A stretch of DNA of 63,806 nucleotides, the filler included, from Reclinomonas americana ATCC 50394 (taxonomy: Eukaryota): the NCBI GenBank assembly GCA_048213135.1. It is 7 parts of 5 records of this genome, joined end to end, with 100 filler letters (N's around TTAATTAATTAA, not from the genome) between each part and the next. Parts side by side here need not be neighbours in the genome. Positions count along the whole stretch, not along the records: positions 40,181 to 53,683 come from PS015694.1; 6 more parts are not named here. One strand, 5' to 3'. Below the pieces are notes generated by a model. It ran no database searches. It saw only the letters and a list, made by a program, of their open reading frames with translations, and was not told the DNA's origin. Within the stretch, counting starts at the first letter, position 1, and each line of letters starts with the position of its first letter. The translations under genes and the position numbers were made by a program. Below, piece by piece: positions 32,743 through 58,993 of this stretch.

Positions 32743-35700
32743 GAGAGTAGAATCAGGACGGAGAGGCACACACGGGAAATGAAGACAGGGAACACATGTG
32801 AAAACAATGCAAGACAACAGGCAAAGAGTGAGAGAGAGGCGCACGCATGCGGAAAGAGTAGGATGAGAGGAGAATGTGAGTGAATGACAAAGGATGCGAG
32901 GAGGATAAGCAGCAAGCACGCACGAGATACGGGAGGTGAGGGGAGGAGGAAGAAGAAGAGGGCGATGTGAGTGACTCACACCACGGATGCGATTCGCTCA
33001 AGGCACACAGACAAGCACGCACACGCGAGATGATGAGCACTCCAAGAAGGAAGAGGGAGAGAGAGAGAAGACAGAGAATGCGAAACTGATGAGGGTGTTG
33101 ATCAATCACGTCACGCATGCGCGGTGCGGTCACACGAATCAATGACACGCATACATACACGCCGAGGAGGGAGAAAAGAGAGAGGAGAGAACAGAGAGCG
33201 CGAGAATGTGACGCAGATGGGCGTGAAAATCAATCGCATCCAGAATGCAGCTGCAGCGCGCACAGGCAAATCAACGAGACGCACGCGCACACACGCAGCA
33301 ATGTTCACTCAGAGGAGGAAAAAGAAGAGGGTGAGAGAGGAAAGGGGAGAAGGAATCATGTCTGCGATCAATTCAGAAGAATTCTCTCTCTCTCTTTCTC
33401 ACTCACTCTCTCGCTCTCTCTCTCTCTCTCTCTCCCGCACACACACACACACACACACACCTTTCATGCAACAACAAATCGAACATGAGTCCTTTTCGCC
33501 TCCCGCGTCCCTGTTTCGCTCACACCCAGCACTCTCTTCCTCACTCATCCATGACACGTGGCACAGCAGGCGACCATCAAAACACGGGCGTGCTGCAGAA
33601 AGAAAGATACGTCAGGTGTCCTGCATGACATTAATCTCACAAGCACAACGTACACCGCAACGAGAACAAGCCGACTGTCTGTGTGAGACGTGTGTGCAAC
33701 AAGGTACATCGTGCTGAAGAGCGAGAAGAGAAGCCAAGAACTGCGACGAGAAGATGTCGGTGAGCTGTATTGATTGAGTGGGGGGACGCTTGCTTCTCTC
33801 TGTGTCTTCTCTCTCATCGCTTGTCGCTCACTGCCTTGTGTGTGCACAGTTTTCTGTGAATGTGAGTGCGGCGCATGATTCATCGCTGTCGGTGGTGGTG
33901 GAGGGCATGTCGGGCATGTCCACTCTCGCGGACTTGCTGCGCGAGGCCACACGCTTGCTGCGTGAGAAGAGTGGAGATGGGGAGATGGAGATTGTGGGAG
34001 TGGAAAAGCCTGTGTCATATGACCTGACGCACGCCAGCGGCGTGCCGCTGTGTGCGCTGGGCATCAACTCATCCACTCATCTTGTTGTCTGTCTGACACT
34101 TGGCATGGCGCTGCAGTCGAGTGGAGGAAGTGAGAGTGGAAGGTATGTATGTCTGGGATGTGGAATCTTCTCTCTGTGCGCAAAGCATGCAGCTCACTCT
34201 CATGTCTTCGCACAGCAACTCGGATCGAGTGACGCGGTTTGTTTCGACTGTGTCCTCCTTTCTCCCTTCGTGTTCTTCACTCGGCATGAGTCTGATTGTG
34301 TTTGTATGCACGCACAGCATGATCAACTCGCAGCGCATCAACATGGCCTTTGATGTGGTGGAGGAGGCCGTGCGTCTGCAATGTCAGCGTGCACTGGCGC
34401 AGTTCAGTCGCGACCACCCCGACTTTGATGTGCGGGCGTGGGTGCCGAGATTCACGCCTGCCGGCATGGATGCGGCGGCGGTGAAGGGATGGCGTGAGTG
34501 TCATGCTCCACTCCATCCTGGTCGAGTCAAGTTGTTTGAGGAGAAGCAGCCGGCGATGTTGGCCTGGCGCGATGCATACGACGTCGACCCCTCGTCCGAC
34601 CCCACGTGTGACGGTTTTGACACGACTGCGCTCTCCTCTATCATGCTATATGGTGGCTTTGTGCACAGTGACGGTCGCAAGCTTCTGCTGATTGACGATA
34701 CTGATGAGCGGAAGGCAGTGGAGGAGCAGCATTCTGTCAGGAACAAGCTGAGACACGATGAGTTGCCGTTGACGGATGCCACTGTTCAGGAGTACCTTGA
34801 CGATGGCGGCATCTTCCGCTCTATCCTCTCTCGATTGCAACTGACGGCTGACGATCGGGCTCGACTCTTGGCTCGTGTCAGTGAGGCACGTCACGCCTGT
34901 CACATTGTTGACACATTCGAGGAGCGACTGCACCGACTGGCTGAGCGTGAGCTGTCATTCTATCAGCGCGACGAAAGTATGCGCAAGGACATGCAGATGT
35001 ATGTGCCGCTGTTGTGTTCCCGTGATCGCGACGTCTCGTCGAGAGACAACATGATGGATCTGTTGACGGAAGTGGATGTGTTCCTCTCTGACACCAACAC
35101 CACCCAGCGTGTGCTGGTGCTCTTTGGCAACAGTGGAGTCGGTCAAGACCACCACCATGTCGGTGCTGGCTGAGCGAGCATGGCGACAGTGGCAGACGCG
35201 AGAAAGTCGACGTGTGCCTGTGCGTGTGCCTCTTGGTGCTCTGCGCAATGCCGATGAGCGGCTGCTGGAAGAGGCACTGGAGCGACTGTCACCCGAGTTG
35301 GGATTGGAGTCGGATGTGCGACGGTTGAAGGAGGAACCACTACTGTTGTTGCTTGACGGGTACGATGAGCTGTATCGTGGTGTGAATCTGTTTGTCAAGA
35401 ATCAGCTGGATGTGTGTCGCGACGTAAAGGTGATTATCACCTGCCGTGGCGATTACGCACTGACGGTACTGGGTGGTGTGACACAGTATCGACGGTACTT
35501 TGCGCCGGTTGATGCACGAGGACAGTTGTGCATGCAGCAGCTGATGGAACGACACATTGCTCCTTTCAACAAGGAGCAGATTGAGGAGTACTTTGAGCGA
35601 CTGGTGCAAGTAGAAGGTGATGATGATGATGAAGAGCGATGGTCGACTGCCGAAGAGTACATTCGTGCACTGAAGAGTGTGCATGGACTGGATGCATTGG

Positions 35701-38700
35701 TGTCGAATCCATTCCTGTTGGCAGTGGTGGCTCATGTGTTGCCGCAGTTGGTAGCGAGTGGCGTGCAGCGACCGACTCGGTGCGATGTGTTTGACCGATT
35801 CATTCGATCGTGGATTGTAAGGGAGCAGGAGAGACAGACACGTCTCGGTGCGGAGCGTGTACCGAATGAAGAGACGTGTCTGGCGTTCTGTGAGGGACTG
35901 GCACGGTTGCTGCACGAGACGAATGTGGTGCGTGTGTCTGTGACGGAGAGTCAATCATGTGAGGATGATTTCGGTTGCGCGCCGCTCGACCTTCGACGAG
36001 TGGAGGAGGGACCATTTGATAAGTTCCTCGGTCCCAAGAATCAGCACGTACGAGTGTGCTGTCCGATTGTGCGTCGGTTCGGCACGAATCAGTGGGGTTT
36101 CGTGCATCTGTCTCTGCTCGAGCACTGTGTGGCACAGCATGTGTTTGCGTGGGAGACGTGGGATGAGAAGAGAAGGTTGACGATGCAAGATGTGCAGCGT
36201 CATGTGTTGGCAGTGCGTCCGCTGAACGACAGACCATCGTTGGTGGAGCAGATGGCCGAGGTGGTGCGACGGTCTCCTCGATTGCAAGCGAGACTGTGGG
36301 AGGTGATTGAGATGTCACGTGAAGTGGATGAGGAGCGAGTGGTGACGGCAGCCGCGAATGCTGCGACGGTGTTGTGTGTGGCAGAAGTGTCGTTCAGCGG
36401 ACGCGATCTGTCGTGTGTGCGAGTGAGGGGTGCGGATTTGAGGGATGCAGTGATGCACAGGACGGTGTGGAAGGGGGCGGATTTGCGTGGGGTTAACGTG
36501 TGCATGGCGTATGCAAGGGAGGCGGATTTCAGAGGGGCGGATGTGACGGATGTGAGGTGGCCGAGGAAGCCGTTGGTGGGGCACACCGGTGCGGTGCAGG
36601 CCGTTGCCGTCACTCCCGATGGGCAGCACATTGTGAGTGGCAGTGATGACAAGACTGTACGGTGTGGTCAGTGGCAAGTGGCAAGGAAGTGCGCCGACTG
36701 GAAGGGCACACGAGTGAGGTGCGTGCAGTGGCAGTCACACCCGATGGCCAGCACGTTGTGAGTGGCAGTGATGACAAAACTGTACGGGTGTGGTCAGTGG
36801 CAAGTGGCAAGGAAGTGCGCCGACTGGAAGGGCACACGAGTGAGGTGCGTGCAGTGGCAGTCACACCCGATGGTCAGCACATTGTGAGTGGCAGTGATGA
36901 CAAAACTGTACGGGTGTGGTCAGTGGCAAGTGGCAAGGAAGTGCGCCGACTGGAAGGCCACACTAAGTGGGTGTTTGCGGTGACAGTGACGCCGGATGGT
37001 CGGTACATTGTGAGTGGCAGTGTAGACGAGACTGTGCGGGTGTGGTCACTGGCTAGTGGCGAGGAGGTGCGACGGTTGGAAGGCCACACGAGTGGGGTGT
37101 GGGCAGTAGCAGTGACACCCGATGGCCAGCGCATTGTGAGTGGCAGTGATGACAATACTGTACGGGTGTGGTCGGTGGCAAGTGGCGAGGAGGTGCGCCG
37201 ACTGAAAGGCCACACGGGTTGGGTCTCATCTGTGGCAGTGACACCCGATGGCCAGCACATTGTGAGTGGCAGTCTGGACATGACTGTACGTGCGTGGTCG
37301 GTGACAAGTGGCGAGGAGGTGCGCCGACTGGAAGGCCACGCGAGTTCGGTGTTTGCAGTGGCAGTGACACCCGATGGCCAGCACATTGTGAGTGGTAGTC
37401 GGGACAATACTGTACGTGTGTGGTCGGTGGCAAGTGGCGAGGAGGTGCGCCGACTAGAAGGCCACACGAGTGTGGTGTATGCAGTGACAGTGACACCCGA
37501 TGGTCAGCACGTTGTGAGTGGCAGTGATGACCAAACTGTACGGGTGTGGTCGGTGGCAAGTGGCGAGGAGGTGCGCCGACTGGAAGGCCACACGAATGAG
37601 GTGCTGGCAGTGGCAGTGACACCCGATGGCCTGCACATTGTGAGTGGCAGTGGGACCATTGTGGGGTGTGGCAGTCGGGATAATACTGTACGGGTGTGGT
37701 CGGTGGCAAGTGGCGTGGAGATGCATCGACTGGAAGGCCACATGTGGCCGGTGAATGCAGTGGCAGTGACACCCGACGGCCAGCACATTGTGAGTGGCAG
37801 TCGGGACAATACTGTACGGGTGTGGTCGCTGGCAAGTGGCGAGGAGGTGCATCGAGTGGAAGGCCACACGAGTAACGTGGATGCGGTGGCAGTGACACCC
37901 GATGGCCAACACATTGTGAGTGGCAATTCGGACAAGACTGTACGGGTGTGGTCGATGGCAAGTGGCGAGGAGGTGCGCCGACTGAAAGGCCACACGGGAG
38001 GGGTGCATGCAGTGGCAGTGACACCCGACGGCCAGCACATTGTGAGTGGCAGTCGGGACAATACTGTACGGGTGTGGTCGATGGCAAGTGGCGAGGAGGT
38101 GCGCCGACTGGAAGGCCACACGAGTAACGTGAGTGCAGTGGCAGTGACACCCGATGGCCAACACATTGTGAGTGGCAGTTCGGACAAGACTGTACTGGTG
38201 TGGTCGCTGGCAAGTGGCGAGGAGGTGCACCGACTGGAAGGCCACACGAGTGGGGTGTGTGCAGTGGCAGTGTCACTCGATGGCCAGCACATTGTGAGTG
38301 GTAGTGGAGACGGGACTGTACGGGTGTGGTCGGTGGCAGGTGGCGAGGAGATGCGCCGACTGGAAGGACACACTAGTGAGGCGGGGGCAATGGCAGTGAC
38401 ACCCGATGGCCAGCACATTGTTCCACGGGAGAAGGAGATGTTATGCGTGCGCCGTCGTGATGGACTGCTCGAGCGCATCATCGGCTCCTTCCTTCCTGAT
38501 TTCACCGATGTAATTTGGTGACAATCACAACAGCGACCGTGTATGAACCCTCGAATGTAAACCAGCTTGTTTGTGATGAGGTCGTGCCAGATGTAAGAAC
38601 ACACATGTTATCGTCGCCCTCAACTTCTATGCCGTGTGTGCTGATTTACCATCACGAGGTACTCCACTCGTTACGCACTTTCTCTGATGGAAGAAACCTC

Positions 38701-38737: not shown

Positions 38738-39542
38738 TGCCTCTGCCTGCATCTGTCGCCGATCAAGGTGACCATTGATCCAGCTCCCCCTCGACACCGC
38801 GGAGGTCATTGTTCCCAAGCGTGCTGTCTACATCACTTCGCAGTCATTCAACTGCGATGCAACATCCGCATATCATGTAAGCATTTGATGGGAATACGTT
38901 CTTCGAGTTCCAGAAGCACAGACGCGTCGTAATTTATTGGTAGGAGATGATACAAGAGTTGCCACTGGATCCTGACGAGTGCACGCGTGTGATCACTGCG
39001 CAGTGGCCGATAGGAATTGTGCGTTATGATTTCGTGACGCAGATGTCGTTTGCCTTGCTGTGCTAGCAACACGTGCGAAACCGCGCCTTTGTTGTTTGCG
39101 TGAGATGAAACTGTGAGAAGTGTATTGTGAGCCTCTGTCGTTGACGCATAATCTCGAATGCAAGGAATAGAATTCGAAGCGGCAGCGAATGTCTGCGTGG
39201 TTCAGCACCTGCGCAATACGGACCTGCTATTTGTTTACTCATCCACTTCATATGACCTCCAGAATGAGAGAGACAAAGGAGACTCAGAACGCAGGAACAC
39301 AACGAGTGACAGACACAGAATCACACTCAGATAACATTCACAGACAAGCCACTGTCACGATGACGCGTGTTCATGCGAGCTGCGACAGTTCCGAGACGTC
39401 GGTGCTCAACTGAATGGTGGGCATGTGACGGCACATGCAGGCGGCCGCTTCATGTTTTGGTCAAGTACACCAGTCGCTTGGTCGCATGCCCGAGCACGCC
39501 GCAAGCGTGGTCACGCTCATGCTGCATCCGGCGTTGCATGAC

Positions 39543-39666
<124 letters not shown>

Positions 39667-39800
39667 CAGGATGTTGGACACAGAAACAACTAATGGAAGC
39701 GACAACGAAGAGAGAGGATGTGGGAAAGAGAAAGAACGAAGGGAAGCGACAACGAACAGAAGAAGAACGAAGGGAGGGAGAGAAGAACATCAATGCTCCG

Positions 39801-40080
39801 TCAGATCCGTAACTGGTCATCCTCGCCACGCAATTGATCGTACGCCGTCGCCAGCTCATGACACACGTAGCCGCGACTGGCCTTGAGACGGAGCACCTTG
39901 AGGTAGTTCTCGCGCTTCTGAATCAACTCACGCAGCTGCGCCTCCGATTTCTTCCTGTACTCTGCGGGCGACTCGAGCACCAGCACGTCCTCGTTCACAT
40001 CGTCGAAAAACTCGGCCTTGTTCAGGTCTACCACGAAAATAATCAGCACGTCGCCACTGTACCGAACCCGGCACCGCAAA
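39801..40080 (-). CDS. Probable terminal exon of an unidentified gene, cut by a spacer
   Basis: GC3-rich frame RCRVRYSGDVLIIFVVDLNKAEFFDDVNEDVLVLESPAEYRKKSEAQLRELIQKRENYLKVLRLK...DQLRI-stop. Confidence 0.45.
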
Positions 40081-43000
40081 NNNNNNNNNNNNNNNNNNNN
40101 NNNNNNNNNNNNNNNNNNNNNNNNTTAATTAATTAANNNNNNNNNNNNNNNNNNNNNNNNNNNNNNNNNNNNNNNNNNNNCCAAGCACGCCATTCAACAG
40201 AGAACGCACACCATGAAATGTGATCAAGAAAAGTGGATAGAGAGATATTGTGGTGGTGGAAAAGAGAGTGAAGGAGAAGGAACATTGGGTGTGGATGGAT
40301 GGATGGATACAAGAGAGAAACACAGAGATGACGAAGAGAGGCGAACAGAGAGCAGCAGAAACGAGAGAAAGCGAAAGCATGAGAGCACGAGGGTGATGGT
40401 GATGAGAAGAAGAGAGACAACCACACACGGATGGAGGATGCAGAGATATGCATGACAGGCCACGAAAAAATGAGCAAGAATACGCGCATACAGACGACGC
40501 TCACACTCCCAAGAACACGGAGTTGAGAGTCGATGACGAGAACCAGGGAAAGGAGGCAATAAGGGAAAGACGGGAAGGAGAATGCAATGGATGGAAATGG
40601 AGGGGGATACAAGAGGCTGCTTCCTCACGCTAGGAGGGAAAGAAAGAGAGAAGATTCTGGAGGAGACAGAAGGGATGAGAGGGGAAGGAAAGGAGAAATG
40701 AACGACGGGATGCCAACACGATATGCACGGTGACGGAGACGATGAAGGCGATATACAGAAAAAGACGAATCAACGGCAAGCACACATGCATACACGCGAC
40801 AGCAAGCACTCGAAAATGACGGAGGAAAGAAGAATGAAGATGAGGGAGGGAGAGAGGGAGGAGAGGGGAGAGGGTGGAGAAGGAGAAGCACGTGTGCGTG
40901 TTCAGGCAGCATCACAAATGAGGTGAAAAGAGACGGAGAGACGGGGAAACCCTTCAAGAACAAGCCTGACAGAGAGCTGCTCAGCGCGACAAGCATGTGT
41001 GGCACGATGATGATGNNNNNNNNNNNNNNNNNNNNNNNNNNNNNNNNNNNNNNNNNNNNNNNNNNNNNNNNNNNNNNNNNNNNNNNNNNNNNNNNNNNNN
41101 NNNNNNNNNNNNNNNNNNNNNNNNNNNNNNNNNNNNNNNNNNNNNNNNNNNNNNNNNNNNNNNNNNNNNNNNNNNNNNNNNNNNNNNNNNNNNNNNNNNN
41201 NNNNNNNNNNNNNNNNNNNNNNNNNNNNNNNNNNNNNNNNNNNNNNNNNNNNNNNNNNNNNNNNNNNNNNNNNNNNNNNNNNNNNNNNNNNNNNNNNNNN
41301 NNNNNNNNNNNNNNNNNNNNNNNNNNNNNNNNNNNNNNNNNNNNNNNNNNNNNNNNNNNNNNNNNNNNNNNNNNNNNNNNNNNNNNNNNNNNNNNNNNNN
41401 NNNNNNNNNNNNNNNNNNNNNNNNNNNNNNNNNNNNNNNNNNNNNNNNNNNNNNNNNNNNNNNNNNNNNNNNNNNNNNNNNNNNNNNNNNNNNNNNNNNN
41501 NNNNNNNNNNNNNNNNNNNNNNNNNNNNNNNNNNNNNNNNNNNNNNNNNNNNNNNNNNNNNNNNNNNNNNNNNNNNNNNNNNNNNNNNNNNNNNNNNNNN
41601 NNNNNNNNNNNNNNNNNNNNNNNNNNNNNNNNNNNNNNNNNNNNNNNNNNNNNNNNNNNNNNNNNNNNNNNNNNNNNNNNNNNNNNNNNNNNNNNNNNNN
41701 NNNNNNNNNNNNNNNNNNNNNNNNNNNNNNNNNNNNNNNNNNNNNNNNNNNNNNNNNNNNNNNNNNNNNNNNNNNNNNNNNNNNNNNNNNNNNNNNNNNN
41801 NNNNNNNNNNNNNNNNNNNNNNNNNNNNNNNNNNNNNNNNNNNNNNNNNNNNNNNNNNNNNNNNNNNNNNNNNNNNNNNNNNNNNNNNNNNNNNNNNNNN
41901 NNNNNNNNNNNNNNNNNNNNNNNNNNNNNNNNNNNNNAGCGCGACAAGCATGTGCGGCAATGGTGATCAGAGACGGAGATGCAAGATACAAAGGGAGGGA
42001 AGGGAGAAGGGACGAGTACGAGAGAGAGAAGGAGAGAGAGAGGAGAGTGGAGAGGGACGATGAACAAATGATGTGTGTGGGTGAGGGAAGAGAGAGTCCG
42101 ATCAGGACGGAGAGGTACACACATGGGGAATGAAGACAAGGAACACACGTGAAAACAATGCAAGACAACAGGCAAAGAGTGAGAAAGAGGCACACGCATG
42201 CAGAAAGAGCAGGACGAGAGGAGAATGAGAGTGAATGAGAATGGATGCGAGGAGGATGAGCAGCAAGCACACACGAACCACGGGAAGTGGGGGGAGGAAG
42301 AAGAGTAGAGCGATTTGAGTGATTCACACCACGGATGCGATTCGCAAAAGGTACACAGACAAACAAGCACACGCGAGATGATGAGCACTCTAAGAAGGAA
42401 GAGGGAGAGAGAGAGAAGAGAAGAGAGAGTGAATGTGAAACGGAAGAGGGTGTTGATCAATCACGTCACACATGCGGTGCACTCACACGAATCAATGACA
42501 CGCATACATGCACGTTGAGGAGGGAGAAAAGAGAGAGGAGAGAGCAGAGAGCGCGAGAATGTGACGTAGATGGGCGCGAAAATCGATCACAACGAGAATG
42601 CAGCGCGCGTACACACAGGCAGCTGCAGATTAACGAGAAGCACACACAGATGCACACGCGCAACAATGTTCAATCAGAGGAAAAAGAAGAGAGGCAAGAG
42701 AGAGAGAGAGGAGCGAGAGAAGGAATCATTTCTGCGATCAATGCACACACTGCAGGGAGAATTCTCTCTCTCTCGCTCACTCGCTCTCTCTCTCTCCCTC
42801 TCTCACACGCTCTCTCTCTCTCTCCCGCACACACACACACACACCTTTCATGCAACAACGAATCGAACATGAGTCCTTATCGCCTCCCGCGTCCCTCTCT
42901 CCCTCGCTCGCGCATTCTCTCACGCCCAGCACTCTCTTCCTCACTCATTCATGACACGTGTCACAGCAGGCGACCATCAAACACGCGCGTGCTGAAGAAA

Positions 43001-43155
43001 GAAAAGAAAGATACGTCGGATGTCCTGCATGACGATGATCTCCGCACACAACAAGACCGCCACGAGAACAAGCCGACTGTCTGTGTGAGACGTGTGTGCA
43101 ACAAGGTGCATCCTGCAGACGATCGACAAAAGAAACAAAGAACTGCGACGAGAAG

Positions 43156-46100
43156 ATGTCGGTGAGTTGTATTGATTGAGTGGGGGACGCTTGTTGTCCG
43201 CGTGCTTCTCTTTGTCTTCTCTCTCTCTCATCGCTTGTCACTCACCGCCTTGTGTGTGTGTCGCAGTTCTCTGTGAATGTGAGTGCGGCGCATGACTCGT
43301 CGCTGTCGGTGGTGGTGGAGGGCATGTCGGCCATGTCCACTCTCGCGGACTTGCTGCGCGAGGCCACTCGCTTGCTGTGTGAGAAGAGTGGAGATGACGG
43401 GGTGGAAATTGTGGGAGTGGAGAAGCCTGTGCCATACGAACTGGAAGACGCTCCGGTGATGAAGCTTCGCAGTCTGGGCATCAACTCATCCACTCACCTT
43501 GTTGTCCGTCTGACACTTGGCGTGGCGCCGCAGTCGAAGGGAGGGAGTGGAAGTGAGAGTAGAAGGTGTGCGTCTGGGTGTGCATCACGTCTGTGTGCGA
43601 AACATGCATCTCACTATTGCTCTCATGTCATTGAACAGCAACTCGGGGCGAGTGACTCGGTTTGTTCTGCTTGCCTTCGTCGTCCTCGTCTCTCACTTTC
43701 CTTATTCTTCCACACAGTGTGAGTCTGTGCTGACCGTGCTTGCTTGTACGTGCAGCATGATCAACTCGCAGCGCATCAACATGGCCTTTGAGGTGGTGGA
43801 GGAGGCCGTGCGTCTGCGCTGTCAACGCATACTGGCGCAGTTCAGTCGCGATCATTCCGACTTTGATGTGCGGGCGTGGGTGTCGAGTTTCATGCCTGCT
43901 GGTATGATTGCGGTGGCGATGAAGGCATGGCGTGCGCGACATGTGCCGGTTACTAGATGGCAAGTTAGGTTGTATGAGGAGAAGCAGTCGGTGCTGTTGG
44001 CCTGGCGTGCTGCGTTCGATGCGGACCCCTCATCTGACCCACCGTGTAACGGTTTTGACACGACGGCACTAACCTCTATCTTGTTGTATGGTGGCTTTGT
44101 TGAGGATGACGGTCGCAAGCTGCTGCTGATTGACGATGCTGATGAACGGAAGGCAGTGGAGGAGCTGCACGGTATCAGAAACCAGCTGCGACACGATGAG
44201 TTGCTGTTGACACACGACAGTGTGCAGCAGGACCTTGGTGACGGTGGCATCTTCCTCTCTATTCTCTCTCGACTGCAGTTGAAGGTTGACGAGCGCGCTC
44301 GATTCTCTGCTCGCATTTGTGAGGCACGTCACGCTCGACTCATCATGGACACATTCGAGGAGCGACTGCATCGACTGGCTGTGCGTGAGCTCTTAGTCTA
44401 CCAGCATGACGAGAGTGTGCGCAAGGACATGCAGATGTATGTGCCACTGCTGTGCTCACGCGACCGTGACGTCTCGTCGAGAGACAAGATGACGGCACTG
44501 TTGACGGAGGTGGATGCTTTCCTTTCCGACGCCAACACCACGCAGCGTGTGCTGGTGCTGTTTGGCAACAGTGGTGCTGGCAAGACCACCACCATGTCAG
44601 TGCTGGCTGAGCGAGCATGGCGACAGTGGCAGACGAGAGAAAGTCAACGAGTGCCTGTGCGTGTGCCTCTCGGTGCTATGCGCAATGCCGATGAGCGATT
44701 GTTGGAGGAGGCATTGGAGCGACTCTCACCCGAGTTGGGATTCAGTGAGGCGGATGAGCGACGGTTGAAGGAGGAACCACTGTTGTTGTTGCTGGACGGG
44801 TACGACGAGTTGTACCGTGGTGTGAATCTGTTTGTTAAGAATCAGCTGGATGTGTGTCGCGATGTGAAGGTGATTATCACTTGTCGAGGCGATTACGCAC
44901 TGACGGCATTGGGTGGTGCGACACAGTATCGACGGTACTTTGCGCCGGTGGATGCACGAGGACAGTTGTGCATGCAACAGCTGATGGAGCGACACATTGC
45001 ACCGTTCAACAAGGAGCAGATTGAGGAGTACTTTGAGCGACTCGTGCAAGTGGGTGGTGATGATGATGACGGTGAAGTGCGATGGTCAACAGCCGAGGAG
45101 TACATTCGTGCAATGAAGAGTGTGCATGCGCTGGATGTACTGGTGTCGAATCCGTTGCTGCTGGCGGTGGTGGCTCGTGTGTTACCGCAGTTGGTAGCGA
45201 GTGGCGTGCAGCGACCGACTCGGCGTGATGTGTACGATCGCTTCATTCGACAGTGGATTGAGAGGGAGCAGGAGAGGCAGACTCGTCTCGGTGCGGAACG
45301 TGTGCCGGGTGAGGAGACGTGTCTCTCGTTCTGTGAGGGACTGGCACGGTTGATGAATGAGAGGAATGTGGCGCGTGTATCGGTGGCGGAGACTCGGTCA
45401 GATGATGGGGAGGAGGGCGAAGACTTTGGTGGTGCACCACTCGCCATGCGACGAGTGGACGAAGGACCGTTTGACAAGTTTCTCGGTCACAAGAACCAGC
45501 ATGTGCGAGTGTGCTGTCCGATTGTGCGACGGTTTGGGACGACGCAGTGGGGTTTCGTTCATCTGTCATTGCTTGAACACTGTTTGGCGCGCCATGTGTT
45601 TGCGTGGGAGACGTGGGATGTGGAGAGGAGGTTGACGATGCAGGACGTGCAGCAGCATGTGCTGGCAGTGCGGCTGCTGAACGACAGACCTTCGTTGGTG
45701 GAGCAAATGGCCGAGGTGGTGCGACGGTCTCCTGCACTGCAAGCGAGACTGTGGGAGGTGATTGAGTTGTCACGGGAGGTGGATGAGGAGAGAGTGGTAA
45801 CGGCAGCGGCGAATGCAGCGACGGTGTTGTGTGTGGCACAGGTGTCGTTCAGTGGACGAGATTTGTCTGGTGTGCGAGTGAGGGGTGCGGATTTGAGGGA
45901 TTCGGTGATGCACAGAACGGTGTGGAGGGGAGCGGATTTGCGAGGGGTGAATGTGTGCATGGCGTATGCGAAGGAGGCGGATTTCAGAGGGGCGGATGTG
46001 ACGGGTGTGAAGTGGCCGAGGAGGCCGATGGTGGGACACACGGACAAAGTGCGGTCTGTGGCAGTGTTTCCTGATGGTCAACACGTTGTGAGCGGGAACT

Positions 46101-47959
46101 TGGACTGCACAGTGATAGTGTGGTTGGTGACCAGTGGCGAAGAGGTGTGCCGACTGGAGGGACACACAAGGGAGGCGTGTGCTTTGGCAGTGACACCCGA
46201 TGGCCGGCACATTGTGAGTGGCAGTTTGGACAGGACTGTACGTGTGTGGTCGGTGGCAAGTGTTGAGGAAGTACGCCGACTGGAAAGCCACACGAGTGGG
46301 GTATCTGCAGTGGCAGTGACCCCCGACGGACTGTACATTGTGAGTGGCAGTGAGGACAAGACTATGCGGGTGTGGTCACTGGCAAGCGGCGAGATGGTGC
46401 GCCTACTGACTGGCCACACTGAATGGGTGAGCTCTGTTGCCGTCACTCTCGATGGACAGCACATTGTTAGTGGTGGTGGCACATTTGACAAGACTGTACG
46501 GGTGTGGTCGATGGCAAGTGGTGAGGAGGTGCGCCGACTGGAAGGCCACACGAGTACGGTGAATGCAGTGGCAGTGACACCCGACGGACTGTACATTGTG
46601 AGTGGCAGTGATGACAAGACTGTACGGGTGTGGTCGATGGCAAGTGGCGAGGAGGTGCACCGACTGGAAGGCCACATGTGGCAGGTACGTGCAGTGGCAG
46701 TGACACCCGATGGCCAGCACATTGTGAGTGGCAGTAATGACAAAACTGTACGGGTGTGGTCAGCGGCTAGTGGCGAGGAGGTGCGCCGGCTGGAAGGCCA
46801 CACCAGCTGGGTGCGTGCGGTGGTAGTGACACCCGATGGCAATAACATTATGAGTGGCAGTGAGGACAAGACTGTACGGGTGTGGTCGGTGGCAAGCGGG
46901 GAGGAGGTGCGCCGACTGGAAGGTCACGCGGATGAGGTGTATGCAGTGGCAATGACACCCGATGGCCGTCATATTCTGAGTGGCAGTCGAGATAAGACTG
47001 TACTGGTGTGGTCGGTTGCAAGTGGCGAGGAGGAGCGCCGACTGAAAGGCCACACGAGTGGGGTGAATGCAGTGACAGTGACACCCGATGGACAACACGT
47101 TGTGAGTGGCAGTTGGGACAGGACTGTACGGGTGTGGTCGGTGGCAAGTGGCGAGGAGGTTCGCAAACTGGAAGGCCACACGTATGGGGTGTCTGCAGTT
47201 GCAGTGACACCCGACTGTCAGCACATTGTGAGTGGCAGTGTTGACAAGACTGTACGGGTGTGGTCGGTGGCAAGTGGCGAGGAGGAGCGCCGAGTGGAAG
47301 GCCACACGGAAGGGGTGTATGCAGTCGCTGTGACACCAGATGGCAAGCACATTGTGAGTGGCAGTATGGACAAGACTGTACGGGTGTGGTCGGTGGCAAG
47401 TGGTGATGAGGTGCACCGACTGGAAGGCCACGCGGATAGGGTGTCCGCAGTGGCAGTGACATCTGATGGCCAGCACATTGTGAGTGGCAGTGATGACAAG
47501 ACTGTACGGGTATGGTCGGTGGCAAGTGGCGTAGAAGTGCGCCGACTGGAAGGTCACACGAGTAGGGTACTTGCAGTGGCAGTGACACCAGATGGCCAGT
47601 ACATTGTGAGTGGCAGTGAGGACAAGACTGTACGGGTGTGGTCGTTAGCAAGTGGCGAGGAGGTGCACCGACTGGAAGGCGAAACTGGCTCTGTGTACAC
47701 AGTGACAGTGACACCCGATTGCCATAACATTATGAGTGGCAGTGCGGACAAGACTGTACGGGTGTGGTCGGTGGCAAGTGGCGAGGAGGTGCGCCGAGTT
47801 GAAGGCCACCCAAGTGGGATGTCTGCAGCGACAGCGACACTCGGCGACCAGCGCATCTCCTGCCATGGGGTTGATATTCATCCTGTACATCGTCGTGACG
47901 GATTGCTCGTGCGCATCGTCGGCTCCTTCCTGCCTGATTTCACCGATGCAGTTCTGTGA
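43156..47959 (+). CDS. Intact NLR-like STAND receptor: ubiquitin-like domain, HEPN (DZIP3/Swt1-like) RNase, NACHT, pentapeptide repeats, 14 WD40
   Basis: Exons 43156-43161 (ATG TCG|GTGAGT), 43267-43565 and 43756-47959, phases compatible. FDTTALTSILL...IRNQLRHDE (RxxxxH at 44177-44194). Walker A GNSGAGKT at 44564-44587, Walker B LLLLLDGYDE, KVIITCR, NPLLL, WGFVHLSLLEH, AAANAATVL...FSGRDLSGVRVRGADL. 126-nt WD40 units LEGHTxxVxAVAVTPDGQHIVSGSxDKTVRVW at ~46030-47850. Confidence 0.9.
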
Positions 47960-48867
47960 TGAGCACAACTGTGAGCGTGTATGAATCCTCAAATGTAAAC
48001 CAGCTTGTTTGCGATGAGGTCGCAAGTGATGTAGACACGTGTGTAATCTTCGCCCTCAAGTTTTATTCCGTGTTGATTGAGCATTACGAGGTAATCCACT
48101 CGTTGCCCACTTTCTCTGTTAGAAGAAACCTCAGTGATCTGACGATGCACTGCACAGCCTGTTTGCTGTCTGGGGAGGCGAAGGGAAGAGACGCGAGGAG
48201 ACGGAAATGGGTGAAGGGAAGAGAGGAGAGGAGAAGAAGGGAGAAAGGAGAAGAGAAGGAGGAGAAGGGAGGAGAGGAGAAGAGGAAAATGTGTGGGAGA
48301 GGGGATGAGAGGAAAGATGAGAGGAGATGAAGGAATGCAAGAGAAAGGAAAGGGGAAGAACGGAGAGAAGAGAGGAGGTGAGAGGTGAGATGGTGTAAAT
48401 AGAAACTGGGACCAATGAGAATGTGCGGTTGTTTCCGTGTGCGAGAGCTTGTCCAGTGTGACTGTGTGTGTATATGTGAGTTAGTGAGCGAGGGCGAGAG
48501 AGTGAGACCAGCTCAGCCGGCGCCGGCGGGGATAAAAAGGAAGTGGAGGGAGGAGGAATGGAGAAGCAGCAATGAACAGAATGAGTGAGTTGTAAGATGC
48601 GTTATGTGGCCAGAGAGACACTTAGAGAGTGATGGCATGTATGTTGAGTGAGGTGCACGAGATTACGTTGGAATGGAGCCCCGAATTGCAGAGGATAGTG
48701 GATGGACTTTGTAGACTGGAGACATTTGCATCGATCGAATGAGCATTCCTGGTCGTCGGCAGTGGTTTCTTTGCGTAAAAAGCTCGTTTCCCTTTCTCTT
48801 ACTCTCTGCGAGAAGCGAGCTTGAGTCAGTGTGAATGTATTCCTTTCACTCACACTATGTATTACAG

Positions 48868-51800
48868 CATTCAATTTGGTGGCGTCGGATCGTTTACTGC
48901 CGTCACCGGTGGCCAACTTACCGTCTGTGAGTACGAGTGGAGAGTGCGAAGAGTGCAGAGATCAAAATGAGTTGCTCATGTGCTTGTGTTTTCGGCAGAT
49001 CCCAACTGTCGCGTCGTCATACACGGTGACAATCGGCAAACAACCACTATTGGTACGGTCACCCAGCATGTCATGCTCACATCCATCATCCTTCTTATTC
49101 TCCTGCATCTGTCTGCAGTCACTGGCGCAACAACATAGCACAATCGGTTTTCGCGTCGGTTTGTCCGGACAAGTGGTGGTGTTGACGGTGCCAGTGGCCT
49201 CATTCCCCTTTGTCACGCCGTCATTCACACTGTTCAAGAACGCCGACTGCCGCGGAAATGTGGCCACCATCATCAGCGGCTTCAACATCGCGTCTGATGG
49301 CACGACCTATACCATCACATGGACATTCGACACGACTGGGGTGCCGACACCAACGAAGCAGCAGTTGTGCCTGTCGTCCACTGACCTGGCAGGCTACTTT
49401 AGCCTGGCGTCTGTCTCCATTTGTTGCGTTCCGGCTGGAGATATTATGTTGTCACGTTTGCATCATCTCATGCTAACGAGGTGAATATGCAGATCGTGTC
49501 AAGAGCACTTCCGCGCCGTCCATATCACAAGGCATCAAGTCGCAAACTGTTGTCTTGTCGGGTGGTGACTTCCCATTGCTGGCTGCAAGCGCTGCCAGTG
49601 GCAGAAATCCAGTCACGCCTGGCGGCACGCCACTGGCATTCTTCCTCTCACTCGCCGCCGACTGTTCGTCGATGGACTTGCGGGCGGCTGCCTTTGTGGT
49701 CACTGCGGTGTGCGCCGACGCGTATTACGGCCACGGTTTCCACCATTTCTGCGGTCTCACTCGCCTCGTGCACGCTGGATCCGCTTGGTGCGTATCAAAT
49801 TTGTAGTCGGTGTGTTACGGAGGGAAAGAGGGAAGGGAGGAAAAAGAGAGAGGGAGGAGGGAGATGGGGGAAAGGGGAGGGGGAACGACGGTGAAGAAAG
49901 AGTGGCAGGGGAGAGAGAGCAGTACCGTTGGGAGAGTGATGTGGGTGAGGGGAAATGGTAATAGAGAAAGGGCGTGAGAGTGGATGGTGTGGGGCACAAA
50001 GAACAGAGCAGTGGGTGACGGGAGGAGAGATGAAGTAAAGCGGGAGAGGCAGGTGAGCCAAATAGTAGATTTTCTGTATGTGTGAGATACGCGAGGATGT
50101 GAATGAGAGGGCGGCTGTGAGTGGCAAGAGGGCTGAGGAGCAGTAGGAAAATGATTTTGGGGCTGCAGGTGAGCCACGTTTGTGCGAGAGATACGCGAGG
50201 ATGTGAATGAGAGGGGCAAGAGGGCTGAGGAACAGAAGGAGAAGTGAGTGAGAGGCTGCAGGTGAGCCACGTATGTGCGAGAGATGGGCGAGGATGTGAA
50301 TGAGAGGGCGGCTGCGAGAGGCAAGAGGGCTGAGGAGAAGTAGGAAAATGATGTTCAACGAGAAAATTGGAAGGATAAGAGAGAATGCGATTGATCTAAT
50401 GACGTTACACCACCATCGACTATTCCACTGACGAAATATCTCCGCACAGCTTCCAAGACTGCTCGTATGTGCCTCTCGTTGTGCAATTGACCATCACGAC
50501 CGTCACCGACCCCGATGTCGGCTTCATTTCTCCGACTTCGTTGCCTCTCGGTGTGCCAACTACGTTGGTGTTGCATTCGCCATCGCGCACGCTGTCGAGT
50601 TGTACTCGTTTCAAGGTGGTCGACGCTGGGTCCGACTGCAATGGTCCGGCTTCGGGTGAGTGCTGAGAATGAGAAGATTTTGCGCGGGCGGTGGGTGGAG
50701 GAGATCTGTGCTCAGGTTCACCCTCTTTGCATATCTCTCTCTCGTCAGCGGCCCTTGCGCTTACGGCCTTCCAAGACGGCGTGTTTGATGCGTCGTCATG
50801 CTTCTATGGATCTGTCGCTGGCGGCTGTGGACAGTTCAAGGTGCAGCTCACGAGCTCCAAGTCGGTACATGCCACATTCTGTGTGGCAACCACTCCAGGG
50901 GCGACGTACAAGGCGGTGTCGAACAGCGACATTCGTGTTACCTCGGGTATGCTGGTGCAGACGTCGTCGGTGGTGGCCAACCAGGCGGGGACAATCGTTG
51001 CGGGAAAAGGGTGAAGAGGGAAGGAAGGTGCAGAGGGAAGGGGGTAAAGAGGGAAGGGGGTAAAGAGGGAAGGGAGGTAGTAGAGGAAGGGGGGAGGTAG
51101 GAGAGGAGGGAGGAGAGGAGGTAGAGGANNNNNNNNNNNNNNNNNNNNNNNNNNNNNNNNNNNNNNNNNNNNNNNNNNNNNNNNNNNNNNNNNNNNNNNN
51201 NNNNNNNNNNNNNNNNNNNNNNNNNNNNNNNNNNNNNNNNNNNNNNNNNNNNNNNNNNNNNNNNNNNNNNNNNNNNNNNNNAAAGAGGGAAGGAGGGTAT
51301 AGAGGGAAGGTGGGTGAAGAGGGAAGGGGGATAAAGAGGGAAGGGGGTAGAGAGGGAAGGGGGTAAAGAGGGAAGGGAGGTAAAGAGGGAATTGGGGAAA
51401 AGAGGGAATAGGAGGAGGGAGTTAAGAGGGAAGTTGGAGGAGGGAGTTGAGACAGGGAGAAGGGAGGGAGATTATGGGTGATGTGGAAGGATGTGAGGCG
51501 AGGAGAAGAGAGGAAAAGAGGGAAGGGGGGAGGGAAGTGAGTCAAGGAGAAGGGGGGTTTTGAAGGCATTTTGCGTGGAAGAGACAGGGTAGGGTGGAAG
51601 TGTGTTGATGAGAAAGCAAGGGAGAGAGAAACAGACTGAAGAATGTCTGTTGAATTTGTGTGCCTTGCAAGGGAGGAAAAGAAAGGAGGGAGAAAGGGAA
51701 CAGGTTAGCTTTGTAAGTGTGTGGATGGGAACGCGTTGGGGAGTGTAACAAAGAGAAGTGTGTCAGTGGAGTGTTTGTGGCGCAAGAGAGGACCGTCAGG

Positions 51801-53683
51801 GGATGAATAGGTTGTGGTATTGTGTGGATGTGGATGCAAACGATTGAGAGAATGAGAGTGCCAGGAATGGAAAGGAGAAGGAGAGAAAAGGAGACGGAGT
51901 GGTTGTGGCAATGAGTGTGTTGATGGATATGTGAAGGAGAGAGAAACAGAGAGAAGTGTGTCGGTGGAGATTGGATGGCAAGAGAGGATCGTCGGATGGG
52001 GAATGGGACGGATTGGTTGTGATCGACAGTGCGTGCATGGATGCAAGGAAGAGAGAACCAAAGAAAAGTGAGTTCGAGGAGATTGCGTGTGGCATGCGAA
52101 GAAATGCAGAAGGGGGAGGGAAAGGATTTGTCGTGGTAGATAATGTGGATGGATGCAAGGGAGAATTTGTGGTATTGTGTGACGACGGTAAAAAGGAGAG
52201 AGTGAGATAGGAGGAGCCATCAGTGGAGATTGTTCTTGTCCTACGAGAGTGAGAGACCGATTGGGGGGAGGAAAAGATTAGTTGTTCCCCTGTGTGATGT
52301 GAATGGACCGCATGAGAGAACGGGTTGTGGGTGACAGAAGTGGAAGACTTGAGGAGGGGAATGGGTGAGACTTTTGGGAGTGTGTGCTTTGGAATTCAAC
52401 AGATGAGTGACATAGAGGATTGAAGGTCAATTGTGCGTGCGAGGAGAGGAGGTTGGGGACAGAAAGGAAATGTTGAGATGTTGTTGATGAGATAAACAAC
52501 AACAAGTGAGTGAGTGAGTCAGAGAGTTTATGTGTGAACCAGAGAGGAGTGACGGAGGAGCGGTTCGGATAGCATGTCATTTTCGATCGCATGGTGTCCA
52601 TGGTTTACATGCTGACGTTTGCTCCCTGGTTGTGCGACAGATGAGCACTGGCACTGGCACTCGCTCCGTGGAGATTACTCACCGCTTTGTGCAATCGTTC
52701 CCTGCGATTCCCACTGTGCTCTTTGGCATCTCCGCTCTCTCCAATACGATTGAGGGCGACACTGACATTGGCTGCGCGAGGCCGTCGGTCACCAAGTTTA
52801 TGCTGACGGTGAAGTGCTCGGCACTCGGCACCGCGCAGTTCGACTCGCTCATTACCAGTTTCGTGAGATCGACTTCGTTTTCGTGCACACTTGCATGAAA
52901 CTCACGACCTACGTCGCAGATTTCATCGCCATGTACGCGGACCCTGCCGCGACGTACACACACGACAACGAGTTGCCGCGTCAGAAAACTGCCAATGAGT
53001 GGCTGAGCCTGGCCACTGAAAAGAATTTCACCACGGTTTGTTGATGCAAGCAGACCTGTACATGGTCCCTGGACTCATTCATCGCAACCGTGTGGCTGTG
53101 TGAGCAGGAAGTGGTGAATGCCCATGCTTTTGGATTCCAGACAATCCCCTCGATTGCGCTGGCGTTGACGGGTGTGCGGTCCATTCGACTCGATTCGAGT
53201 GGCACGGCACGCAGCGACAACTTTGAGGTGGCCGTCGGTGAGGCGGCCGCTGCCACCTCGCAGGTGTTGATGACGGTGCGCGGCGATAGTCGCGTGCAGG
53301 CGTTGGAGCTGCGTTCCATGCTGGTGGGATCGCGGCTGGCGCCACGGGATAATTCCAGTGGCTACGTGATGGTTTCAGGCGGTGAGTTTGACTGCGAAGA
53401 TTTGCCGGCAGTTGTGCACGATTACTGACCTGGATCACCGACATGTTGCACAGAGAGCACGCTGGTGGGTAACACGCCGGTGGTGGTCACCCTCGTTAGC
53501 CGTCAGTCAACCCGCGGGTTGAAACAGACTGATTTCCATACCGCCGCGTTCTTGCGTGGATGGAAGACGACCGGCACTGGTGCATCGCAGGTCAATCCGT
53601 CGATTCTGCCGACGGATGTGGTTCCGTCACAAGGCAGCGCGTCGAGTGGAGCGTACGGGCAGCTGACGGTGACGGCGAGCAGT
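48868..53683 (+). CDS. Partial multi-exon extracellular-type protein: Cys-containing beta-rich repeats, H-type-lectin-like domain, fibre-like beta segment; both ends unresolved
   Basis: Exons ~48868-48926, 49000-49053, 49119-49405, ~49492-49810, ~50457-50656, ~50749-50985, 52641-52862, ~52920-53035, 53141-53370 and ~53455-53683. STGTGTRSVEITHRFVQSFPAIPTVLFGISAL...VTKFMLTVKC...QFDSLITSF fits the H-type lectin pattern. The gene runs into the spacer at 53684. Confidence 0.55.
50045..50350. repeat. Intronic tandem repeat, three ~100-120-bp units
   Basis: GCAGGTGAGCCA...GAGATACGCGAGGATGTGAATGAGAGGG...GGCAAGAGGGCTGAGGA recurs three times. Confidence 0.75.
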
Positions 53684-57243: not shown

Positions 57244-58993
57244 TCGCGCGGCCGCGAGCGGCATCGACGAGCGCTGGCCTCACGCCGGGAGAGCACTCTT
57301 GGATTTTCTCGATCGGTCTATCCGGCGGACGCGCTTTGCCTATTTCTCGATGGAGATCGCGCTTCGCGCCGAGATGCATACCTATAGCGGCGGACTGGGG
57401 GTGCTCGCCGGGGACTCGGCACGCTCGGCCGCCGATCTTGATCTGCCGATGGTATTCGTCACGCTCGTGAGCCGGCAGGGTTATGTGCGGCAAGCGATCG
57501 ATGACCGTCATGGGCAGATCAGCAAGCCCGACCCATGGGCGCCACAGGATTTCGCGACAGCCTTACCGCAGATGATCGCGGTGTCGATCGAGGGGCGTGC
57601 CGTATGGGTGCGCCCTTGGCTCTATGGGCTGGAATGCCCGCTCGGGCATATCGTTCCGGTCGTTCTGCTCGACACCGATCTCGAGCAGAACGCCGTCGAG
57701 GATCGCCGGATCACAGATACGCTCTATGGCGGCGATCAGGCCTATCGGCTGAAGCAGGAGATCGTGCTCGGCATTGGCGGCCAGAGCGTGTTGCGCGCGC
57801 TCGGCTTCCGCATCGACAAGTATCATCTCAACGAAGGTCACGCCGCGCTATTGACGTTGCCCCTGTTGCGGGAGACCCAGCGACCAGACGCCGACGGTTC
57901 GTCGGATCCGGTCCGCGGCTACGACATCGCGGCGGTTCGCGAACGGTGTGTGTTCACGACGCATACGCCCGTGGAGGCGGGATTCGACAAATTCGACTAT
58001 GATCTCGTCGACCGCGTCCTCGGCGACTACATCGAACGTGATGTCCTGACGCATCTGGCCGGCATCGATCATCTCAACATGACGCGGCTGGCGCTGAACC
58101 TCAGCGGCTATGTGAACGGCGTCGCCCGCCGGCATGCGGAGACGACGCGCAAACTCTTTCCAGGCTATCAGATCGCTTCGATCACGAACGGCGTCCATGT
58201 CCATCGATGGACGCATGGCGCCATCGCAACGCTCTTCGAGCAGCAGTTCTCGAACTGGGCGCATGAGCCCGAAGTCCTCGCCTTCGCCGACCAGGTAGAC
58301 AACGGTGCGCTCTGGGCGGCGCACGAAAACGCCAAGCGCGATCTCTTGGCGCGCGTCGCCCAGGCGACGGATAAACAGCTGCGTGCCGATCTGCCGTTGA
58401 TCGGCTATGCGCGGCGCATGACCGCCTACAAGCGCCCGGAGATGATCTTCTCCGACCTGGACCGGTTGCGCGAGATAGCGAAAGACCGTCCGTTTCAGAT
58501 CGTGCTGGCCGGCCTCGCGCATCCAGGCGATGGCGGCGGGCAAGAGGCGATCCGCGCGCTTGGCGCGCATATCGAGTCGCTGGACGGTGTGGTCCCGGCA
58601 GTGTTCGTGCCGGGCTACAATCTCGACATCGCGGCGGCGCTGGTCGCTGGTTGCGATGTCTGGCTGAATACGCCGCTGCCGCCGCTCGAGGCCTCCGGCA
58701 CCAGCGGGATGAAGGCCGCGCTCAACGGCGTCCTCAATCTCAGCGTCCTTGATGGCTGGTGGATCGAGGGCTGCGTCGACGGCGTGACAGGCTGGTCGAT
58801 CCCTAGCAATGGCGCCCACGCGAATGACGCGGTCGCTCTGTACGACAAGCTCAGGGACGTGGTGCTTCCGCTTTACGACGGTGATCGCGGCCATTGGATC
58901 TGGATGATGAAGCAGGCGATCAGCAAGATCGGCCCGTCCTTCAACTCTCATCGGATGATTCGGCGCTACGTCACCGAAGCCTACTTGCGTTGA
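57209..58993 (+). CDS. glgP: Alpha-glucan family phosphorylase (true start probably somewhat downstream)
   Basis: [49 protein letters not shown] and [14 protein letters not shown] motifs. Confidence 0.92.

Follow-up and report, generated by a model that had tools for sequence, protein, structure and literature searches.

We analyzed a window of 63,806 nucleotides (nt) from Reclinomonas americana ATCC 50394, which joins 7 parts of the genome assembly end to end; all positions given here count along this joined stretch, of which 40,181-53,683 derives from record PS015694.1. The gene at 43156-47959 on the plus strand raises the question of what kind of receptor it encodes, and in particular whether the helical domain in its N-terminal part (hereafter the head) is a ribonuclease (RNase) of the HEPN type, as an earlier note on this DNA had proposed. 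The predicted protein combines, in this order, an 85-residue module, the helical head of ~195 residues, a NACHT domain, pentapeptide repeats and a run of 14 near-identical WD40 units. At 33754-38521 (+), 9.4 kb upstream of the gene (copy 1) in window positions, lies a tandem paralogue (copy 2) with the same exon structure. In our reading the gene would encode an intracellular receptor of the STAND/NOD-like receptor (NLR) type, ~1,502 residues long and equipped with an active, sensor-triggered HEPN RNase head, and we assign this full reading a probability of about 0.55. The HEPN fold of the head, taken by itself, is rated somewhat higher and is considered rather likely.

The NACHT, pentapeptide and WD40 chassis

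Three of the previously proposed parts, the NACHT domain, the pentapeptide repeats and the WD40 repeats, are borne out by Pfam, each above its cut-off. The NACHT NTPase occupies 44564-45040 (+) (PF05729, E 1.3e-7, 32.0 bits against a cut-off of 26.7) and possesses an intact Walker A motif (G-N-S-G-A-G-K-T, 44564-44587 (+)), followed downstream by an intact Walker B-like sequence, L-L-L-L-L-D-G-Y-D-E. The pentapeptide repeats at 45842-45946 (+), located between the NACHT domain and the WD40 array, score 27.2 bits against a cut-off of 20.2 (PF00805), and pentapeptide-repeat proteins from the PDB match this region with an E-value of 2.5e-8. The WD40 array at 46028-47797 (+) consists of 14 tandem units of 42 residues each, one of them having 44, and is recognized as 14 stretches by Pfam WD40; Tandem Repeats Finder describes it as 13.6 copies of a 126-nt period with 79% matches, and the differences between units, as judged by eye, are concentrated at a few positions. 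A match to HEPN_Toprim_N (16.1 bits, cut-off 25) falls in the post-NACHT region, outside the head, and was disregarded. This composition supports the assignment of the predicted protein to the STAND/NLR type, with a NACHT domain, pentapeptide repeats and highly similar tandem WD40 repeats.

A search with the NACHT-to-pentapeptide stretch alone as query yielded 531 relatives with E-values of 0.001 or less. Of these 531, the best 120 show ~30% identity over roughly 500 residues, with E-values down to 4e-52, and most of them cover 94-100% of the query, except for the top match (P0003) and P0122, which cover about half. Among the same best 120, all relatives with names belong either to the Mortierellomycota (Mortierella, Linnemannia, Benniella and others) or to the Mycoavidus/Glomeribacter endosymbionts, and the remaining ones are mostly JGI/ENA metagenome proteins. 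A NACHT-PPR-WD40 architecture has been described for Mortierellomycota and Mycoavidus (PMC11291939). Judged by sequence similarity, the chassis of the predicted receptor is closest to this Mortierellomycota/Mycoavidus clade and not to animal NLRs. The heads carried by these relatives are either Arm-like (PF23948, ~700 residues) or short N-termini, and a phmmer search without filters detected no N-terminus resembling the present head among the 120 relatives (best E 0.26). Single metagenome-assembled genomes of Mycoavidus (L001-L012) carry several diverged NACHT-pentapeptide-WD40 copies with 48-82% identity, and five such loci are present in one isolate.

A candidate HEPN domain in the N-terminal head

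The head is encoded at 43781-44365 (+) and comprises 195 residues, counted from M-A-F-E-V-V. It contains two motifs: F-D-T-T-A-L-T-S-I-L-L (44054-44086 (+)), a candidate helix-2 segment with an acidic residue (D93), and R-N-Q-L-R-H (44177-44194 (+)), an Rx4H sequence with Asn after Arg, which is the candidate catalytic motif (R133, H138). The corresponding sequences of copy 2 are F-D-T-T-A-L-S-S-I-M-L and, at 34739, R-N-K-L-R-H, so that both motifs were confirmed in both paralogues where they had been reported. According to PMC3710099, the Rx4-6H motif of HEPN nucleases lies where helix 3 ends, its Arg is followed by a polar residue, typically Asn, and helix 2 contributes an acidic residue; the head likewise combines Rx4-6H with a polar second residue, and both its R-N pair and D93 fit this description.

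The motifs by themselves are less telling than the earlier note had suggested. It is correct that R, N and H are kept in both copies, but the claim that they are conserved while their neighbours diverge is weak, as it compares two sequences with 74% identity; at that level, a pair of sequences would keep all three residues in about 4 of 10 cases. Nor is R-N-x-x-x-H a rare sequence on its own: chance alone gives 0.02-0.05 occurrences per 237 residues of control sequence. Among 70,706 amino acids of window open reading frames, the two-motif pattern, which was defined after the fact, is confined to the two paralogues, and it occurs not once in 185,865 amino acids of homologues.

The main support for a HEPN fold comes from similarity in protein language-model features and from alignment register. 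In the ESM Atlas the best match of the whole 268-residue stretch is a cluster with 99% of its members assigned to HEPN_Swt1, at a score of 0.80, which we treat as a lead only. Residues 9-190 of the head returned 30 matches that share 173-197 of 256 features, with scores of 0.90-0.94; for comparison, 4-10% of random sequences attain 0.9, and these statistics do not extend to parts of proteins. Sets of HEPN_DZIP3 or HEPN_Swt1 hold 23 of the 30 matches: 13 belong to the HEPN_DZIP3 set (label on 11% of cluster members), three to a set of HEPN_DZIP3 with DUF4559 (labels on 38% and 37%), and seven to the HEPN_Swt1 set (39%). Another four fall in a DUF4559 set (11%), and three are unlabelled. DUF4559 is, we presume, the CXorf38 family, itself classed as HEPN. 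The families returned by the Atlas are exactly those proposed beforehand.

For comparison we collected HEPN_Swt1 domains from 401 Pseudomonadota genomes, 13 of which contain a match at E<=0.001, with 12 matches over the cut-off. An hhalign comparison of the two-copy head profile with these 12 domains gave P values of 0.012 and 0.017 in two runs, at a probability of ~3%. The alignment places F-D-T-T-A-L on L-D-x-x-A-L, and E-R-K-A-V-E-E-L-H-G-I-R-N-Q-L-R-H on a block that ends in I-R-N-R-W-A-H; over its full length, F-D-T-T-A-L-T-S-I-L-L is aligned to the HEPN_Swt1 block L-D-x-A-A-L-L-R-I/V. Copy 1 by itself reaches a score of 23.7 (P 0.0057), higher than 134 of 134 real helical decoys (maximum 21.0). 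In all three MAFFT modes used, the head aligns end to end with the HEPN_Swt1 domains, collinearly and in the same register, and in a 14-row alignment of the head with HEPN_Swt1 the sole invariant column is H138, R133, L97 and W50 being nearly invariant.

Other results speak against assigning the head to HEPN or are neutral towards it. Pfam identifies no HEPN family in it at E<=10, HEPN_DZIP3 (PF18738) and HEPN_Swt1 (PF18731) included; the PADLOC models do not match it, nor do PDB entries in sequence and profile searches. An exhaustive phmmer search of 1.84 billion representatives found no true relative of the head, its lone match (P0002), a 400-residue repeat protein, being rejected as an artefact. 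Word-index searches retrieved no homologue among 7,081 candidates for residues 1-330 and none at E<=10 among 3,160 candidates for the two-copy alignment. In an unfiltered hmmsearch, a hidden Markov model built from the 12 HEPN_Swt1 domains gives the head 2.7 bits, rank 5 of ~640 sequences, which is non-significant. The hhalign P value of the head is also no better than that of some unrelated pairs: HEPN_Swt1 compared with an Arm-like segment scores 20.8 (P 0.021), and the head compared with NACHT yields P 0.041. Scores of the head profile against five unrelated families range from 12.0 to 19.5, and a reversed query reaches 16.9, which tempers the Swt1 match; copy 2 alone attains only 16.3 (P 0.097) against HEPN_Swt1.

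Genome-scale and structural searches belong to the same group of results. When the head profile was run over the 401 genomes (at most seven candidates scored per genome, best E 0.0056 per genome), noise-level matches appeared in 72 genomes and none coincided with the 14 places of HEPN_Swt1. AlphaFold2 modelled the head with a mean predicted local distance difference test (pLDDT) value of 34.1 from the single sequence and 49.9 from the 14-row alignment, which already assumes HEPN. A Foldseek search of the latter model against the PDB returned nothing at E<=0.001; a HepS chain at rank 13 (E 7.1) was dismissed as not meaningful. Finally, the Atlas family labels apply to just 11-39% of cluster members. 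In these low-confidence, unreliable models the Rx4H motif starts at the end of a helix, a placement that agrees with PMC3710099 (single sequence), or lies inside helix 120-137 (14-row alignment). One of the noise-level matches in the 401-genome search is a 242-residue bacterial protein (L047:1105-1830 (+)) that carries A-I-R-N-A-L-A-H and has a sub-threshold Pfam match to 'HEPN pEK499 p136' (E 0.0086); we regard it as anecdotal.

Many of these observations favor an alternative in which the protein is the same NLR-type receptor but its head is not HEPN, being instead a lineage-specific helical effector or adaptor, for example a membrane-targeting or protein-recruiting one, with a coincidental R-N-x-x-x-H. 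The lack of HMMER-level, PADLOC or PDB matches, hhalign scores within the range of unrelated controls, and low-confidence models without a HEPN fold match all agree with it, as do the quite different heads of the chassis relatives and the chance frequency of the motif per domain-sized stretch. We nevertheless consider this alternative, the main rival to our reading, the less likely one, since the Atlas look-alikes at 0.90-0.94 are specific to HEPN_DZIP3/HEPN_Swt1 (23 of 30) and point to no other family, and since the motif blocks, their spacing and the flanking helices are collinear with HEPN_Swt1 in every alignment method tried. Profile and structure methods are starved of data here because the family in hand consists of two members. 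The HEPN assignment thus stands in part: Atlas look-alikes and the in-register Swt1 alignment argue for it, whereas Pfam, PADLOC, PDB, HMMER and Foldseek lend it no support. On balance the head is plausibly a divergent HEPN-like domain and, as the predicted effector, would be an endoRNase that works without metal through its Rx4H site.

A HEPN fold does not necessarily imply a nuclease. The head might be a module for RNA binding or sensing, oligomerization or regulation, a role already suggested for the HEPN dyad of Swt1; PMC3710099 states that the HEPN of Swt1 is possibly inactive and an RNA sensor, and that non-catalytic HEPN domains exist. Such a role seems improbable for the present protein. 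The R, the following Asn and the H are all present in both copies, together with the candidate helix-2 Asp (D93); residues of this kind define the active versions according to PMC3710099, and the N-terminal place on a STAND NTPase is the usual position of an effector.

For the receptor with a HEPN RNase head, we propose by analogy that NACHT would serve as the switch and that the pentapeptide and WD40 repeats would serve as the ligand sensor. A ligand would bind the WD40/pentapeptide sensor surface, as in other STAND receptors, and this binding may release NACHT-driven oligomerization, which would bring the HEPN heads together so that paired Rx4H sites could cleave RNA. RNA cleavage would then lead to growth arrest or cell death, and the system may be used for defence or non-self recognition.

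Gene structure, tandem paralogue and surroundings

The gene model comprises 1,502 codons in three exons separated by two short GT-AG introns, with a single open frame that runs from 43514 through the stop codon at 47959 (+). The tblastn search found two copies of the gene in the window, which share 82.9% nt identity over 6,152 alignment columns, and their comparison delimits the exons. Exon 1 (43156-43161 (+)) is an ATG-TCG mini-exon that contains the start codon and is followed by GTGAGT; both its sequence and the 17-nt start context are identical in the two copies. Intron 1 (43162-43266 (+), 105 nt, GTGAGT...CAG) has a pyrimidine-rich 3' part and differs from its counterpart by indels of 10, 2 and 3 nt. 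Exon 2 (43267-43565 (+)), which has no indels between the copies, encodes 85 conserved residues (43267-43521) and then a Gly/Ser-rich linker. Intron 2 (43566-43755 (+), 190 nt, GTGTGC...CAG) is 65% identical to that of the paralogue, with indels of 6, 10 and 5 nt. Its donor reads GTGTGC in copy 1 and GTATGT in copy 2 at the same aligned position, its acceptor CAG and the following 30 nt are identical and likewise share one aligned position, and the reading frame is restored across the junction. Another candidate donor, GTGGCG at 43522, was rejected, as the paralogue reads ATGGCG there. Exon 3 (43756-47959 (+)) holds the remaining coding sequence up to the stop and shows indels of 3, 3 and 12 nt relative to the paralogue, in addition to two 1-nt frameshifts in the latter.

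Indels that are not multiples of three are therefore confined to the proposed introns, apart from the two frameshifts of the paralogue. Because the splice sites are conserved and such indels are restricted to introns, the comparison supports a predicted spliced eukaryotic gene that starts at 43156, in agreement with the original gene call. The label of the exon-2 module fared worse. It had been called ubiquitin-like from a sequence pattern alone, and the label was not sustained: Pfam gives no match to the module at E<=1 or at E<=10, ubiquitin-family profiles included, and a PDB sequence search returned only designed helical proteins (E 0.84).

Copy 2 is read in three frames, with one extra nt inside the Walker A codons (~35143) and one nt missing at ~36658. 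We attribute these frameshifts either to very recent decay or to an assembly error in a draft with 19 runs of N. Within 34097-38521 the two frameshifts compensate each other, and the intervening 1.5 kb form an uninterrupted frame of their own. The ratio of nonsynonymous to synonymous substitution rates (dN/dS) between the copies is 0.45 in the exon-2 module, 0.35 in the head, and 0.15 in NACHT and beyond; both copies were therefore under constraint until recently. The frameshifts, together with the 19 N runs in the window and the absence of the gene from the protein collections searched, would suit a non-working locus, either a decaying pair of duplicates or an artefact of a gap-rich draft assembly in which the introns are chance GT...AG pairs. 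This explanation is very improbable, given that copy 1 is open for 4.2 kb, that dN/dS is 0.15-0.45 in all parts, that exonic indels are multiples of three and intronic ones are not, and that the splice signals are conserved in both copies.

The window itself is gap-rich, its 19 N runs including 41016-41937 and 28940-29804. Twin blocks of 44 Ns, 12 bases apart, occur at 23321/23377, 32643/32699 and 40081/40137, some of them just upstream of the region of each paralogue. Microsatellite-like GA/CT and CA/GT tracts at 39429-39922 and 42323-43165 lie between and upstream of the two genes and give rise to spurious E/R- and S/L-rich frames. Three neighbouring frames are unrelated to the gene: 54820-56004 matches a HAD-type hydrolase (as in the P-domain of P-type ATPases), 57350-58993 is a partial match to a carbohydrate phosphorylase and is probably one exon, and 59658-60716 matches a D-isomer 2-hydroxyacid dehydrogenase. 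Neither Rfam families nor tRNAs were found in the window, and none of nine window proteins was found in the protein collection.

Relation to known receptors

Fusions of HEPN with NACHT have been catalogued before. PMC3710099 (Table 1 therein) records animal proteins in which a DZIP3-type HEPN is combined with NACHT as well as with other modules, notes that this type is expanded in Nematostella, in oyster and in Capsaspora, a unicellular organism, and also lists CXorf38-type HEPN-NACHT fusions, bacterial HEPN-STAND fusions, and active solo HEPN domains of the Swt1 type in Naegleria and dictyostelids. In oyster, more than 50 NACHT proteins with an N-terminal DZIP3-type HEPN are reported; the NACHT-domain proteins of this species include ones with TPR or WD40 tails, Rx4H is the commonest motif, with Asn after the Arg, and HEPN(DZIP3)-NACHT fusions, some with WD40, occur in bivalves (PMC9646362). 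HEPN is among the effectors listed for bacterial NACHT proteins (bioRxiv 10.1101/2022.07.19.500537), and 'NLR_Helical' heads are described on NOD-like receptors (PMC9815663). The word 'HEPN' is absent from the main text of a survey of fungal NLR effectors. The suggestion that such a system is new for a protist holds to the extent that we found no description of a HEPN-NACHT-WD40 receptor in a protist in the literature searched, but it is narrowed by the HEPN-NACHT fusions known in animals and bacteria from the three sources PMC9646362, PMC3710099 and bioRxiv 10.1101/2022.07.19.500537. What is new here, as predicted from sequence, is a head outside every curated HEPN model on a Mortierella/Mycoavidus-type chassis in a eukaryote.

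The protein resembles the DZIP3/hRUL138-like HEPN-NACHT proteins of bivalves and cnidarians in carrying a HEPN-type head, here a putative one, at its N-terminus, with Rx4H and an Asn following the Arg (PMC9646362; PMC3710099), and in its central NACHT and C-terminal repeats, which in the oyster proteins are leucine-rich, TPR or WD40 repeats (PMC9646362). Tandem, copy-number-variable loci are a further common trait, and the Atlas look-alikes of the present head are mollusc clusters partly labelled HEPN_DZIP3. In contrast to these proteins, the present head has no Pfam HEPN_DZIP3 match, an extra 85-residue module precedes it, and the chassis is nearest to that of Mortierellomycota/Mycoavidus rather than to animal NLRs. 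With the Mortierellomycota/Mycoavidus receptors (PMC11291939) it shares the order NACHT, pentapeptide, WD40 and ~30% identity; their N-termini, unlike the present one, are Arm-like (PF23948, ~700 residues) or short.

Bacterial HEPN_Swt1 fusions offer another comparison. HEPN_Swt1 is N-terminal in five long bacterial frames (L013, L015, L017, L019 and L020), joined once to DUF499 (AAA+) and four times to a SNF2-type helicase; HEPN_DZIP3 was not found in five bacterial genomes. These HEPN_Swt1-NTPase fusions, of the Ava_2192 type, match a description from 2013 (PMC3710099). As proposed for the present protein, an N-terminal HEPN is followed by an NTPase, and the L-D-x-A-A-L-L and I-R-N-R-W-A-H blocks align; unlike in it, the partners are DUF499 AAA+ proteins or SNF2 helicases and not NACHT, and the similarity is below HMMER detection.

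The fungal NACHT-WD40 proteins HET-E and HET-D resemble the present protein in the combination of NACHT with highly similar tandem WD40 repeats that vary at few positions. HET-E has a HET head and is not known to contain a pentapeptide spacer.

The locus does not open a new class: a catalogue of 2013 already includes HEPN-NACHT fusions, and bivalves have them in abundance. We tentatively suggest, as a possible rather than a probable history, that in a non-animal eukaryotic microbe a NACHT-pentapeptide-WD40 sensor of the bacterial/Mortierella type was combined with a HEPN RNase head, divergent enough to found a new HEPN family, and with a small ubiquitin-like cap, in a tandemly duplicating locus, and that the product may act in a protist as an Avs-like, RNA-cleaving receptor for abortive defence. 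If the head is an active HEPN, the gene would represent an RNase-armed NLR outside animals and bacteria. Since its chassis is otherwise seen in Mortierellomycota and their endosymbionts, such a receptor would provide a data point on the shuffling of immune-receptor parts and their transfer between kingdoms, and its head would constitute a compact, testable effector domain.

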